Assembly: GCF_030013205.1 (NCBI RefSeq)
Contig: NZ_CP122648.1
DNA length: 64,000 nt
From: Escherichia coli
GTDB lineage: Bacteria > Pseudomonadota > Gammaproteobacteria > Enterobacterales > Enterobacteriaceae
Strand: one strand, 5' to 3'
Shown here: one piece after another, positions 32,415 to 60,623 of the stretch
Position numbering within the stretch: position 1 is the stretch's first letter
Layout of the letters: the number at the start of each line of letters is the position of its first letter
Made by a program: the position numbers and the translations under genes
The notes under the pieces: model-generated
Database searches by the model: none
Seen by the model: the letters and a program-made list of their open reading frames with translations, nothing else
Told to the model about the DNA's origin: nothing

Positions 32415-33428
<1,014 letters not shown>

Positions 33429-33445
33429 TTGATTAGCGGATAATA

Positions 33446-34155
33446 AAAAACCGGAGCACAGACTCCGGTTTTTTGTTGTGCACAGAAAACCCCCAGCTAG
33501 GCTGGGGGTTCCGGAAAGCTTTCAGCTTTGAGCCAGTTATTAAAACCCCTTTTGATTTGTTAAAACACCTTGCGGTCTGGCAACTGCAAGTGTCAAACAA
33601 GAAATCAAAAGGGGGTCCCAATGGGGAACGAAAAGAGCTTAGCGCACACCCGATGGAACTGTAAATATCACATAGTTTTTGCGCCAAAATACCGAAGACA
33701 GGTGTTCTACAGAGAGAAGCGTAGAGCAATAGGCAGTATTTTGAGAAAGCTGTGTGAGTGGAAAAGCGTACGGATTCTGGAAGCTGAATGCTGTGCAGAT
33801 CATATCCATATGCTTGTGGAGATCCCGCCCAAAATGAGCGTATCCGGGTTTATGGGATATCTGAAAGGGAAAAGCAGTCTGATGCTTTACGAGCAGTTTG
33901 GTGATTTGAAATTCAAATACAGGAACAGGGAGTTCTGGTGCAGAGGGTACTACGTCGATACAGTGGGTAAGAACACGGCGAAGATACAGGATTACATAAA
34001 GCACCAGCTTGAAGAGGATAAAATGGGAGAGCAGTTATCGATTCCCTATCCGGGCAGCCCGTTTACGGGCCGTAAGTAACGAAGTTGGATGCAAATGTCA
34101 GATCGTGTGCGCCTGTTAGGGCGCGGCTGGTAAGAGAGCCTTATAGGCGCATTTG
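33446..34155 (+). mobile_element. IS200-family insertion sequence (IS200/IS605 family, about 0.71 kb)
   Basis: Encodes a 152-aa Y1 (HuH) transposase closely matching Salmonella IS200 TnpA as I recall it. Left-end hairpin with T-run (33451-33474) and internal hairpin CCCCCAGC-tag-GCTGGGGG (33490-33508). The convergent mdh-degS gap is recalled as about 60 bp in K-12 and is 774 bp here. Boundaries are inferred, give or take about 15 bp. Confidence 0.75.
33621..34079 (+). CDS. tnpA: IS200 transposase TnpA (Y1 HuH transposase)
   Basis: ORF 33570..34079 trimmed to MGNEKSLAHTRWNCKYHIVFAPKYRRQVFY...; HuH motif (HIHMLVEIPP) and catalytic-Tyr region present. Confidence 0.85.
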   Translation: MGNEKSLAHTRWNCKYHIVFAPKYRRQVFYREKRRAIGSILRKLCEWKSVRILEAECCADHIHMLVEIPPKMSVSGFMGYLKGKSSLMLYEQFGDLKFKYRNREFWCRGYYVDTVGKNTAKIQDYIKHQLEEDKMGEQLSIPYPGSPFTGRK

Positions 34156-34186
34156 AAAAACCTCCGGCTATGCCGGAGGATATTTA
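34156..34186 (-). terminator. rho-independent terminator of degS (probably the native bidirectional mdh/degS terminator)
   Basis: CCTCCGGC-tat-GCCGGAGG with a T-run on the minus strand just downstream of the degS stop. Confidence 0.75.
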
Positions 34187-34202
34187 TTTTTGAGCGCACG
34201 AC

Positions 34203-57403: not shown

Positions 57404-59740
57404 ATGAAGCAAATTCGTCTGCTGGCGCAGTATTATGTTGACCTGATGATGAAGTTAGGTCTGGTGCGCTTCTCAATGTTGCTGGCGCTGGCCCTCGTCG
57501 TTCTTGCCATTGTGGTACAAATGGCGGTAACCATGGTGCTGCATGGTCAGGTCGAAAGCATTGATGTTATTCGTTCTATCTTCTTTGGTTTGCTGATTAC
57601 GCCGTGGGCGGTCTACTTTCTATCGGTGGTCGTCGAGCAACTGGAGGAGTCACGGCAACGTCTGTCACGGCTGGTGCAAAAACTGGAGGAGATGCGCGAG
57701 CGCGATTTGAGCCTCAACGTTCAGTTAAAAGATAATATTGCCCAGCTAAATCAGGAAATCGCCGTTCGTGAAAAAGCGGAAGCAGAACTGCAGGAAACCT
57801 TCGGCCAACTGAAAATTGAAATTAAAGAGCGCGAAGAGACACAAATTCAGCTCGAACAGCAATCCTCATTCTTACGTTCCTTTCTTGATGCTTCACCCGA
57901 CCTGGTTTTTTATCGTAACGAAGATAAAGAGTTTTCCGGCTGTAACCGCGCGATGGAGCTGCTGACCGGAAAAAGCGAAAAACAACTGGTTCACCTGAAA
58001 CCTGCTGATGTTTACTCACCGGAAGCCGCCGCAAAAGTCATTGAAACCGATGAAAAAGTGTTCCGTCATAATGTGTCACTGACCTATGAACAGTGGCTGG
58101 ATTACCCGGACGGGCGCAAAGCCTGTTTTGAAATCCGTAAAGTGCCGTACTACGACCGCGTGGGTAAACGTCACGGTTTGATGGGTTTTGGTCGCGACAT
58201 TACCGAGCGTAAGCGGTATCAGGATGCGCTTGAACGGGCCAGCCGCGACAAAACGACGTTTATCTCCACCATCAGTCACGAATTGCGTACACCGCTGAAT
58301 GGTATCGTCGGCCTGAGCCGCATTCTGCTGGATACCGAACTCACCGCCGAGCAGGAAAAATATCTCAAAACCATCCATGTTTCGGCCGTCACGCTCGGGA
58401 ATATCTTCAACGATATTATCGACATGGATAAGATGGAACGGCGTAAGGTCCAGCTTGATAATCAGCCGGTTGATTTCACCAGCTTCCTTGCCGATCTGGA
58501 AAATCTCTCCGCATTGCAGGCGCAACAAAAAGGATTGCGCTTTAATCTGGAGCCTACGCTGCCATTACCGCATCAGGTCATTACCGACGGGACGCGTTTA
58601 CGGCAGATCCTGTGGAATCTCATCAGTAACGCCGTCAAATTCACCCAGCAAGGCCAGGTTACCGTGCGCGTGCGCTACGATGAAGGCGATATGCTGCATT
58701 TTGAAGTGGAAGACTCTGGTATCGGCATTCCGCAGGATGAGCTGGATAAAATCTTTGCCATGTATTACCAGGTGAAAGACAGTCATGGCGGTAAACCTGC
58801 CACCGGCACCGGTATTGGTCTGGCCGTTTCTCGTCGTCTGGCGAAAAATATGGGCGGCGATATTACGGTTACCAGCGAACAGGGTAAAGGTTCAACCTTT
58901 ACGTTGACGATCCACGCACCGTCGGTGGCTGAAGAGGTCGATGATGCGTTTGATGAAGACGATATGCCTTTACCGGCGCTGAATGTGCTGCTGGTGGAAG
59001 ACATTGAACTGAACGTGATTGTCGCGCGTTCTGTGCTGGAAAAATTAGGTAACAGCGTTGATGTCGCCATGACCGGCAAGGCGGCGCTGGAGATGTTTAA
59101 ACCGGGCGAATACGACCTGGTATTGCTGGATATTCAGTTGCCAGATATGACCGGGCTGGATATCTCTCGTGAACTGACGAAGCGTTATCCGCGCGAGGAT
59201 TTACCGCCGCTGGTGGCCTTAACCGCTAACGTGCTGAAAGACAAGCAAGAGTACCTCAATGCTGGAATGGATGATGTGCTGAGTAAGCCGCTTTCTGTTC
59301 CGGCGCTAACCGCGATGATCAAGAAATTCTGGGATACCCAGGATGATGAGGAGAGTACGGTGACGACAGAAGAGAACAGTAAATCAGAAGCATTGCTCGA
59401 TATTCCCATGCTGGAACAGTATCTCGAACTTGTAGGACCGAAGCTGATCACCGACGGGTTAGCGGTGTTTGAGAAGATGATGCCGGGCTATGTCAGCGTG
59501 CTGGAGTCGAATCTGACGGCGCAGGATAAAAAAGGCATTGTTGAGGAAGGACATAAAATTAAAGGTGCGGCGGGGTCAGTGGGGTTACGCCATCTGCAAC
59601 AGCTGGGTCAGCAAATTCAGTCTCCTGACCTTCCCGCCTGGGAAGATAACGTCGGTGAATGGATTGAAGAGATGAAAGAAGAGTGGCGTCACGACGTAGA
59701 AGTACTGAAAGCGTGGGTGGCAAAAGCCACTAAAAAATGA
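57404..59740 (+). CDS. arcB: aerobic respiration control sensor histidine kinase ArcB
   Basis: 778-aa ORF MKQIRLLAQYYVDLMMKLGLVRFSMLLALALVV...; transmembrane, PAS, kinase, receiver and HPt modules. Confidence 0.95.
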   Translation: MKQIRLLAQYYVDLMMKLGLVRFSMLLALALVVLAIVVQMAVTMVLHGQVESIDVIRSIFFGLLITPWAVYFLSVVVEQLEESRQRLSRLVQKLEEMRERDLSLNVQLKDNIAQLNQEIAVREKAEAELQETFGQLKIEIKEREETQIQLEQQSSFLRSFLDASPDLVFYRNEDKEFSGCNRAMELLTGKSEKQLVHLKPADVYSPEAAAKVIETDEKVFRHNVSLTYEQWLDYPDGRKACFEIRKVPYYDRVGKRHGLMGFGRDITERKRYQDALERASRDKTTFISTISHELRTPLNGIVGLSRILLDTELTAEQEKYLKTIHVSAVTLGNIFNDIIDMDKMERRKVQLDNQPVDFTSFLADLENLSALQAQQKGLRFNLEPTLPLPHQVITDGTRLRQILWNLISNAVKFTQQGQVTVRVRYDEGDMLHFEVEDSGIGIPQDELDKIFAMYYQVKDSHGGKPATGTGIGLAVSRRLAKNMGGDITVTSEQGKGSTFTLTIHAPSVAEEVDDAFDEDDMPLPALNVLLVEDIELNVIVARSVLEKLGNSVDVAMTGKAALEMFKPGEYDLVLLDIQLPDMTGLDISRELTKRYPREDLPPLVALTANVLKDKQEYLNAGMDDVLSKPLSVPALTAMIKKFWDTQDDEESTVTTEENSKSEALLDIPMLEQYLELVGPKLITDGLAVFEKMMPGYVSVLESNLTAQDKKGIVEEGHKIKGAAGSVGLRHLQQLGQQIQSPDLPAWEDNVGEWIEEMKEEWRHDVEVLKAWVAKATKK

Positions 59741-59852
59741 CCCCGGCTAGACCGGGGTGCGCGAATACTGCGCCAACACCAGGGAAATCTTGGCTGCGCC
59801 GTAAATTATTATGATGAGTTACAAGGGCACAGCACTGTTTTTCAGGCCGCAC
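59732..59852 (-). ncRNA. arcZ: small regulatory RNA ArcZ (SraH/RyhA)
   Basis: Minus-strand sequence GTGCGGCCTGAAAAACAGTGCTGTGCCCTTGTAACTCATCATAATAATTTACGGCGCAGCCAAGATTTCCCTGGTGTTGGCGCAGTATTCGCGCACCCCGGTCTAGCCGGGGTCATTTTTT matches ArcZ as I recall it; its terminator overlaps the arcB stop codon. Confidence 0.85.
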
Positions 59853-59969
59853 GCAGTTAAGATAGCAAAACTTAAATGATTTGTTACATGAATCAGTTAA
59901 ATGTGTGATGCGTAGCATTTTTATTAAAAAAATTAATGTGTTTCAGTCAATTGCGAAAGGATGATCACA

Positions 59970-60623
59970 ATGAAGAAAATTGGCGTAATTCTGAGCGGAT
60001 GCGGCGTCTATGACGGTTCTGAAATTCATGAAGCGGTGTTGACGTTGTTAGCTATTTCACGCAGCGGTGCGCAGGCGGTCTGCTTTGCACCGGATAAGCA
60101 GCAGGTTGATGTTATCAACCATTTAACGGGCGAAGCGATGACGGAAACGCGCAATGTGCTGATTGAAGCGGCACGAATAACGCGCGGTGAAATCCGTCCT
60201 CTGGCCCAGGCCGATGCCGCTGAACTGGATGCGTTGATTGTGCCGGGGGGGTTTGGCGCGGCGAAGAATTTAAGCAATTTTGCCAGTCTTGGTAGCGAAT
60301 GCACCGTTGACCGTGAATTAAAGGCGCTGGCACAAGCGATGCATCAGGCCGGAAAACCGCTTGGTTTTATGTGTATTGCCCCGGCGATGCTGCCGAAAAT
60401 TTTCGATTTCCCGCTGCGTTTGACCATCGGTACTGATATCGATACCGCAGAAGTGCTGGAAGAGATGGGCGCGGAGCATGTGCCGTGTCCTGTCGATGAT
60501 ATCGTGGTTGATGAAGACAATAAGATTGTCACCACCCCGGCATATATGCTGGCGCAGAACATTGCAGAAGCGGCGAGCGGCATTGATAAGCTGGTTTCCC
60601 GCGTGCTGGTCCTGGCGGAATGA
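59970..60623 (+). CDS. elbB: DJ-1/PfpI-fold protein ElbB (YhbL)
   Basis: ORF 59961..60623 trimmed to [29 protein letters not shown]... (217 aa). Confidence 0.9.

Follow-up and report, generated by a model that had tools for sequence, protein, structure and literature searches.

ArcZ is a major post-transcriptional regulator in enteric bacteria, where it ties oxygen and redox sensing to RpoS, motility, mutagenesis, and virulence. The small RNA is produced as a precursor of ~121 nt that is processed to ~56 nt in a Hfq- and RNase E-dependent manner (PMC11331407, PMC4152358). The RNase E consensus is RN↓WUU, the product that it yields from ArcZ is 56 nt long, and CCCUGGUGUUGGCGCA has been named as a conserved ArcZ element (PMC11331407). 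The homologs of Salmonella, Erwinia, Dickeya, Photorhabdus/Xenorhabdus, and Yersinia share the invariant 3′ half, the RN↓WUU motif, a hairpin followed by a U-tail, and a convergent arcB gene (PMC11331407). The annotation of K-12 MG1655 lists the gene as the ncRNA arcZ (b4450) of 121 nt, nine of which are shared with the arcB coding sequence.

GadY, which acts mainly in cis, forms with the 3′ end of gadX a cis-encoded, 3′-overlapping antisense pair of E. coli, in which the small RNA is convergent with the mRNA of a regulator. The likeness to ArcZ lies in this arrangement, a small RNA that converges with and overlaps the 3′ end of a regulator's mRNA, and it provides a model for an overlap that affects mRNA fate. 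Unlike GadY, the established activity of ArcZ is in trans, with a seed unrelated to arcB, and a cis effect of ArcZ is a candidate only.

Identity and position of arcZ

In the window (a 64,000-nt stretch of Escherichia coli DNA), the minus strand from 59852 to 59732, reading GUGCGGCCUGAAAAACAG...CCCCGGUCUAGCCGGGGUCAUUUUUU, is almost certainly arcZ, the gene of the Hfq-dependent small RNA ArcZ (formerly SraH/RyhA). The Rfam ArcZ model RF00081 matched 59852..59745 with 120.8 bits (gathering score 66, E 4.1e-27), covering model positions 1–106 of 106 without truncation and with zero non-canonical pairs flagged. Moreover, the K-12 annotation maps exactly to 59732..59852, and the sequence is identical to the curated b4450 gene at 121/121 nt, with the same neighbors, 9-nt overlap, terminator, RNase E site, and seed. 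Over the 276-nt stretch 59700–59975, only two bases differ from MG1655 and both lie outside arcZ: 59915, in the spacer upstream of the gene, and 59704, within arcB. Among complete E. coli genomes, arcZ was present in 5416 of 5426, with an identity of at least 99% in 5395.

These results bear out a sequence-only reading of the window, which had assigned the minus strand of the arcB–elbB spacer to ArcZ, described it as a known feature, and proposed an alignment to the Rfam model as the check. The identity is supported by the covariance-model score, the identity to K-12, the synteny with arcB, and structural covariation, and no observation speaks against it. The locus is an already described gene and holds no new biology; its boundaries, its structure, the geometry of its overlap, and the conservation of each were observed directly (Table 1), and its expression, processing, Hfq dependence, targets, and regulation by ArcA/ArcB are taken from the literature.

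Table 1. Features of the arcZ locus in the window
Feature	Coordinates	Strand	Description and basis
arcB	57404..59740	+	Sensor histidine kinase, 778 aa; NF008302 equivalog, 1483 bits; convergent with arcZ
arcZ, full-length primary transcript	59732..59852	-	121 nt, TSS G59852, 3′ end inside the U-run; RF00081 and identity to b4450
RF00081-covered segment	59745..59852	-	Model alignment; the model does not extend to the U-tail or to the 3′ arm of the terminator
arcZ promoter	59859..59887	-	-35 GTAACA (59887..59882), 17-nt spacer, extended -10 TGcTATCTT (59867..59859); read from the sequence
Highly conserved block TCACACATTTAACTGATTCATGTAACAAA	59880..59908	-	Upstream of and overlapping the -35; 20-genus alignment; candidate regulator-binding region
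5′ stem-loop GCUGUGCC ... GGCGCAGC	59793..59833	-	8 pairs including one G-U; Rfam consensus structure; precedes the processing site closely
RNase E site GA↓UUU (consensus RN↓WUU)	59785..59789	-	Predicted from the sequence; cut between 59788 and 59787
Processed 56-nt form, 3′ part of ArcZ	59732..59787	-	Length measured back from the annotated 3′ end; processing per PMC11331407
Conserved core and seed CCCUGGUGUUGGCGCAGUAUUCGCGCACC	59756..59784	-	29 nt; contains the small stem-loop GCGC-AGUAUUC-GCGC (59773..59759)
Rho-independent terminator hairpin CCCCGG-UCUAG-CCGGGG (CCCCGGTCTAGCCGGGG)	59757..59741	-	17 nt; terminator scan
UCA + U6 tail	59732..59740	-	9 nt common to the arcB CDS; complement of Lys-Lys-stop
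elbB	59970..60623	+	NF008747, 357 bits; divergent from arcZ; far boundary of the spacer

Promoter, processing, and structure

A conserved minus-strand promoter of the sigma-70 type, with an extended -10, would drive transcription of arcZ from G59852, a base that lies 6 nt beyond the end of the extended -10. The TSS of ArcZ has been placed by published 5′-RACE and TSS mapping, as cited in PMC11331407. Both TTTGCTATCTTA and the -35 hexamer GTAACA were invariant in an alignment across 20 Enterobacteriaceae genera. A generic sigma-70 scan of 59500–60100 called no promoter, because the arcZ promoter agrees with the consensus at 8 of 12 positions and falls just below the cut-off.

Under low oxygen, arcZ transcription would be repressed via ArcB/ArcA, and binding of ArcA-P to the arcZ promoter region has been stated in a review (PMC11331407); the conserved block at 59880–59908 is a candidate location for it. 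Our search of the promoter region (59853–59970) for the 15-mer ArcA box GTTAATTAAATGTTA with up to three mismatches returned no match, as did a search of the same region for the direct repeat TGTTA-N6-TGTTA with up to two mismatches. Since both searches missed the promoter and the counts across the window were near chance, no ArcA site was assigned. An ArcA ChIP-seq study likewise reported arcZ to lack an upstream ArcA site (PMC3798270); together with the absence of a box match, direct binding by ArcA is therefore less secure than reviews imply.

Downstream of the start, the GA↓UUU motif directly precedes CCCUGGUGUUGGCGCA, and the combined element (59789..59769, minus strand) fits the definition of ArcZ given in PMC11331407. 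In the course of processing described in the literature, the 5′ stem-loop of the 121-nt precursor would hold the conserved 3′ region, and a Hfq-guided RNase E cut at GA↓UUU would then free 59787..59732 as the active species of 56 nt. Its published targets are many mRNAs, with which it pairs in trans through the invariant CCCUGGUGUUGGCGCA; among them, rpoS is activated, and flhDC, mutS, tpx, and sdaC are repressed. A single-sequence MFE fold of ArcZ gave z = -2.7 and displayed a long-range pairing of the 5′ and 3′ parts unlike the Rfam consensus; because of the modest z-score and this difference in pairing, the fold was left out as evidence for the 5′ helix.

Conservation and terminator geometry

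Exact matches to the 29-nt core were found in at least 120 species genomes across Enterobacterales. Our species sample consists of the genomes that carry this exact match, so that variant-core lineages lie outside it and the invariance of the core in the alignment holds by construction. Outside Enterobacteriaceae, both the 5′ half and the promoter of the ArcZ homologs are strongly divergent. MAFFT and RNAalifold applied to 115 homologs among the matches listed recovered the two 3′ helices and not the 5′ helix, because the divergent 5′ half was misaligned by MAFFT, and the 5′ helix was scored sequence by sequence instead of by alignment. Scored in this manner, an uninterrupted 5′ helix of at least 8 bp was present in 75 of the 115 homologs among the matches listed versus 11 of 115 shuffles, and its two arms occurred in 83 different sequence combinations.

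The terminator stem displayed a comparable pattern of compensated change, and 120 loci among the matches listed carried 36 different forms of the hairpin; variants in ArcZ homologs include CCCCAAC/GUUGGGG and CCCCAGU/ACUGGGG. Pairs 5 and 6 alternate between G-C, A-U, and G-U in the homologs among the matches listed, and none is broken. At two terminator positions, the same set of matches gave counts of G-C 71, A-U 22, and G-U 22 for one and 80, 21, and 14, respectively, for the next.

In the window, the terminator scan identified a single minus-strand site, with a stem of eight pairs (six G-C) at 59758..59740, a loop of 3, and the tail CATTTTTTAG / CAUUUUUU. The hairpin itself begins one base past the arcB stop codon (TGA, 59738–59740) and does not run across it; at most one base of the stop codon enters the stem, via an extra A-U pair (59758/59740). 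What is complementary to the stop codon and the two final Lys codons of arcB is the UCA + U6 segment. The sequence-only reading had drawn the hairpin and the T-run together across the arcB stop, which holds for the U-tail but not for the hairpin, located immediately 3′ of it. Its description of the two transcripts as convergent and overlapping stands, with the shared 9 nt covering the arcB stop and last two codons.

The overlap with arcB and alternative readings

The overlap could either contribute to the ArcB/ArcZ feedback loop or result from dense packing of the two genes. According to the literature, ArcZ in turn lowers arcB expression, giving a loop of mutual inhibition, and the overlap had been read as consistent with this reciprocal regulation. 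Consistency is as far as that claim goes, as an antisense mechanism is labeled speculation in the review (PMC11331407), and the 3′ overlap is no more than a candidate route for effects of ArcZ and arcB mRNA on one another. In 116 of 116 species among the matches listed, arcZ is immediately followed by the C-terminal end of a convergent arcB. The canonical interlock, in which the stop codon falls exactly between the hairpin and the U-run and ArcB ends in Lys-Lys, was found in 98 of these 116; 32 of the 98 canonical cases carry TAA rather than TGA under the tail. The other 18 of the 116 listed species deviate from this layout, and in ~7 of 116 the arcB stop lies 4–10 nt past the U-run.

The overlap may be an incidental product of compaction, in which ArcZ needs its hairpin and U-tail, arcB ends where it can, and regulation runs via ArcA and trans pairing only; we place this somewhat short of an even chance. 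In support of this notion, T[CT]A followed by at least five T was seen in each of the 120 loci among the matches listed whose flank was long enough, and the corresponding UCA/UUA and U-run are kept even when they no longer serve as the arcB stop. This suggests that the ArcZ terminator is constrained and that the end of arcB can shift freely, a view to which the 18 deviating species also lend weight. An identical interlock in 84% of the listed species order-wide is nevertheless high for a neutral feature, although shared ancestry and the constraint on the U-tail could yield the same.

Tentatively, the overlap might instead act as a cis-antisense element, with arcB mRNA reading through arcZ to form a long, perfect duplex with ArcZ and the two being degraded together (e.g. 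by RNase III) as the basis of reciprocal repression. Such read-through antisense to arcZ is plausible because the scan found no plus-strand terminator-like site from the arcB stop to elbB, and on the plus strand it is UGCGCGAAUA, not a U-run, that comes after the hairpin; a literature search for arcZ/arcB with a bidirectional terminator found nothing. The convergence seen in every listed species and the frequency of the identical interlock also argue for it. Besides the speculative status of the mechanism in the review, the overlap of the coding sequence is dispensable in some lineages, as in the ~7 listed species above and in Pectobacterium carotovorum, where arcZ and arcB are reported as non-overlapping (PMC11331407).

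Transcriptional interference, by which polymerases would converge over ~120 bp and arcB read-through would occlude the arcZ promoter with no RNA pairing involved, appears unlikely. The genes are indeed convergent, and the arcZ promoter lies ~115–150 bp downstream of the arcB stop with no plus-strand terminator between. However, arcB is likely weakly transcribed relative to arcZ, which counts against interference. A further point against it is that ArcZ supplied in trans is reported to lower arcB (PMC4152358).

We regard it as rather improbable that the interlock of ArcZ tail and arcB stop is itself under selection, in which case the coupling could be used mechanistically as a compact, cis-coupled switch. 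If so, the same 9 nt would provide a small RNA with its tail for Hfq binding and termination and its own regulator with a C-terminus and stop. The formation or the stability of the ArcZ 3′ end might then, for instance, be modulated by ribosomes that terminate on arcB or by read-through from arcB.

Two further readings dispense with a small RNA gene altogether, and we give practically no credence to either. The first takes the hairpin, directly 3′ of the arcB stop, as the arcB terminator or 3′ UTR and the RF00081 match as a conserved arcB 3′ UTR, but the U-run exists on the minus strand only, an invariant minus-strand promoter is correctly spaced from the 5′ end, the curated K-12 ncRNA annotation also speaks against it, and the published 5′-RACE and TSS data, cited in PMC11331407, already refute it. 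The second, a small protein encoded by a listed 62-aa ORF (59918..59730, minus strand) or by a leaderless 40-codon ORF whose +1 GUG shares its frame in the sequence, was rejected since the frame is broken in Citrobacter (GTG CGG CCT GAA AAA TAG, with codon 6 a stop) and in Salmonella (an indel of 1 nt and a premature TAA), while indels in the 5′ half are not multiples of three and yet keep the helix, the conserved part being the structured non-coding 3′ region.

The practical value of the assignment lies in annotation. PGAP-annotated RefSeq records of E. coli list arcB and elbB alone over the arcZ stretch, just as the sequence-only reading had expected of a protein-only annotation, and the analysis thereby recovers a functional gene that routine RefSeq/PGAP annotation omits in thousands of E. 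coli genomes.

Identity, distribution and annotation of arcZ

Between arcB and elbB, scanning all 4227 Rfam families with cmscan revealed a full-length minus-strand match to RF00081 (ArcZ) at 59852..59745; all 106 model positions (1-106) are aligned, and none of the pairs was flagged as non-canonical. The curated MG1655 feature "ncRNA arcZ b4450" (121 nt, 9 nt of which are shared with the arcB CDS) maps exactly onto 59732..59852, and over the 276 nt of 59700-59975 two bases depart from MG1655, both outside arcZ. The sequence-only reading had proposed ArcZ on this strand, with an Rfam alignment as its check; the score of 120.8 bits (gathering score 66, E 4.1e-27) and the exact mapping of the curated gene confirm it far beyond chance. 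Minus-strand 59732..59852 is thus E. coli arcZ itself, identical to the K-12 reference, and not an ArcZ-like element; every testable defining feature of ArcZ was found there, and its location in this spacer is already known. A 62-aa mechanical ORF (59918..59730, minus strand) covers arcZ and holds the +1 GUG in its frame. As a small protein it was rejected, since close relatives interrupt the frame, Citrobacter by a stop at codon 6 and Salmonella by a 1-nt indel, and the ORF is therefore not coding.

Across 5426 complete E. coli genomes, arcZ was matched in 5416, with at least 99% identity in 5395, and no match was obtained in 10. A second, plasmid-borne copy occurs in one record. A 401-nt arcB-arcZ-elbB query was matched over less than 80% in 54 genomes while arcZ itself was kept in all 5416, which suggests spacer rearrangements or insertions in some strains.

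The window has the gene order yhcC, arcB, elbB, mtgA, which is likewise annotated in K-12 MG1655 and in one PGAP-annotated strain. The anticipated blind spot of protein-only annotation was borne out: the PGAP-annotated RefSeq E. coli records that were checked, comprising a region table and 22 hit rows, list arcB and elbB alone over 59732..59852, whereas curated MG1655 has arcZ. This missing annotation in PGAP-annotated RefSeq genomes is the sole practical interest of the locus.

Coordinates of the features discussed
Feature	Position	Strand	Remark
arcB	57404..59740	+	778-aa ORF; NF008302 equivalog end to end, 1483 bits
Last two arcB codons, AAA AAA (Lys-Lys)	59732-59737	+	read from sequence
arcB stop, TGA	59738-59740	+	read from sequence
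ArcZ tail, UCA-UUUUUU	59740..59732	-	complement of arcB Lys-Lys-stop
ArcZ 17-nt terminator hairpin, CCCCGG-UCUAG-CCGGGG	59757..59741	-	begins one base past arcB stop
Small stem-loop, GCGC-AGUAUUC-GCGC	59773..59759	-	between CCCUGGUGUUGGCGCA and terminator
Predicted RNase E site, GA|UUU	59789..59785	-	fits consensus RN|WUU
5' helix, GCUGUGCC/GGCGCAGC	59833..59793	-	ArcZ positions 20-27 and 53-60; Rfam consensus
arcZ extended -10, TGcTATCTT	59867..59859	-	17-nt spacer from -35
arcZ -35, GTAACA	59887..59882	-	read from sequence
elbB	59970..60623	+	NF008747, 357 bits
mdh ORF	32424..33428		directly upstream of IS200C-type element
tnpA-like ORF	33570..34079		within IS200C-type element

Architecture of the RNA and its promoter

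With G59852 as +1 of the ArcZ numbering, the promoter elements lie at the correct distance upstream. A generic promoter scan missed them because they score 8 of 12 against consensus. Aligned across 20 Enterobacteriaceae genera, the promoter region is nearly invariant at the -35, at the extended -10 and in a stretch of about 30 bp that surrounds the -35 and continues upstream (59880..59908), and the transcribed 5' half of arcZ varies freely across the same genera. Directly 3' of the predicted cleavage site, which follows the RNase E consensus published for ArcZ, RN|WUU (PMC11331407), stands the invariant CCCUGGUGUUGGCGCA. Counted on the sequence, a cut there would release exactly 56 nt (59787..59732), matching the size published for the active RNA (PMC11331407).

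ArcZ homologues were surveyed by an exact search for the conserved 29-nt core of the 3' part (59756..59784, minus strand), with one genome per species, giving at least 120 loci; the survey takes in exact-core lineages only, and core invariance is by construction. It includes Escherichia, Salmonella, Citrobacter, Enterobacter, Klebsiella, Yersinia, Photorhabdus, Xenorhabdus, Proteus, Providencia, Morganella, Pantoea, Erwinia, Rahnella and others. Among the listed loci, 36 terminator variants occur; in 115 sequences, terminator pairs 5 and 6 alternate between G-C, A-U and G-U with 0 broken pairs. A per-sequence check of these 115 further revealed a helix that stops 7-9 nt short of the core and persists with arms of unrelated sequence (such as GGCUGCGCC/GGCGCAGCC, UUUACUCGCC/GGCGGGUAAA, UGAUUCGC/GCGAAUCA and CGCUGUUGCU/AGCAACAGCG); it is 8 bp or longer in 75 of the 115, vs 11 of 115 shuffles. 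The ArcZ structure is thus supported by covariation.

The overlap with arcB and its possible meaning

The hairpin and its T-run had been read as jointly spanning the arcB stop; this holds for the T-run, and the hairpin proper sits beyond the stop, at 59757..59741. A terminator scan found one site on the minus strand, with a stem of 8 pairs when A-U 59758/59740 and the closing G-U are included (6 of the 8 are G-C), and none on the plus strand, where the hairpin is followed by UGCGCGAAUA without a U-run. The scan found no further plus-strand terminator-like site between the hairpin and elbB, so the end of the arcB transcript is not evident from the sequence. Between the divergent promoters of arcZ and elbB, the plus strand has a weak hairpin (AUGC-GUA-GCAU, then UUUUUAUU, 59905..59925) that scores under the threshold of the scan and may either act as a leaky stop on arcB read-through or be meaningless. 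The reading of the locus as an arcB terminator only fails, as the U-run and the conserved promoter are both on the minus strand.

The survey provides a quantified picture of the interlock between ArcZ tail and arcB stop across the order. Hairpin, T[CT]A and at least 5 T were found in all 120 listed loci whose downstream flank is 40 nt or longer, and a convergent ArcB C-terminus directly downstream in all 116 with a flank of 150 nt or more (tblastn). In 98 of these 116, ArcB ends Lys-Lys and the stop-codon complement (UCA 66, UUA 32) sits precisely between the hairpin and the U-run. In the 18 non-canonical loci, the arcB stop is inside the U-run or at its end (about 8) or 4-10 nt past it (7); one locus extends as far as the hairpin, and the other two seem displaced or frameshifted. 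UCA and the U-run are still present at such exceptions among the matches listed, which suggests that constraint acts on the ArcZ tail rather than on the end of arcB. The overlap is described as usual, yet absent in Pectobacterium carotovorum (PMC11331407). The terminal Lys-Lys of ArcB is the mirror image of the ArcZ U-tail, a minor curiosity already present in outline in that review.

Individual survey loci (L-numbers) with the arcB stop shifted 3-18 nt from canonical belong to Pantoea (L017, L024, L031, L046, L054, L072, L080, L104, L108), Mixta (L032, L120), Morganella (L014), and Pluralibacter and relatives (L042, L045, L068). Past the ArcZ hairpin they still have an unaltered UCA/UUA triplet and U-run; the triplet is seemingly preserved for a purpose other than the stop, or simply by ancestry. 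Odd arcB 3' ends also occur: in L022 (Pantoea sp. 1.19) the arcB frame runs through the U-run into the ArcZ hairpin, and L116 (Chimaeribacter californicus) has its stop 65 nt away from the U-run. The ArcB alignment of L088 (Kluyvera genomosp. 3) ends at residue 92 of 130, with the next stop 83 nt from the U-run, possibly a frameshift or an assembly error.

The published account is the best-supported mechanism (PMC11331407, PMC4152358): ArcZ would be made aerobically, with a peak in stationary phase, bound by Hfq and trimmed by RNase E to the 56-nt form, which would pair in trans with many mRNAs; ArcB/ArcA would repress ArcZ at low oxygen, and ArcZ would lower arcB expression, resulting in mutual inhibition. 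All sequence features needed by this mechanism appear to be present and conserved. Two of its links are less secure than usually stated. The review states that ArcA-P binds the arcZ promoter region (PMC11331407); however, consensus searches found no ArcA-box match in the arcZ promoter (59853..59970) and ArcA ChIP-seq found no site upstream of arcZ (PMC3798270), which makes direct ArcA binding there less secure. Likewise, arcB/ArcZ cross-talk mediated by the overlap is less secure because antisense pairing via the 3' overlap is itself called speculation (PMC11331407). The sequence allows RNA-RNA antisense pairing following arcB read-through, transcriptional interference between convergent polymerases on arcB and arcZ, or an overlap that is incidental and due to the ArcZ tail; it does not discriminate among the three readings.

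A second Rfam match at an insertion sequence

The window holds a second Rfam match, STnc490 (RF01405, 146 bits, 33488..33611, plus strand), which corresponds to the left end of an insertion sequence of the IS200C type (roughly 33480..34190), immediately downstream of mdh. Of 5426 complete E. coli genomes, just 26 have this junction, and the best matches are swine isolates with 19-31 IS200C copies; the window is thus from an IS200C-rich lineage and not from K-12.
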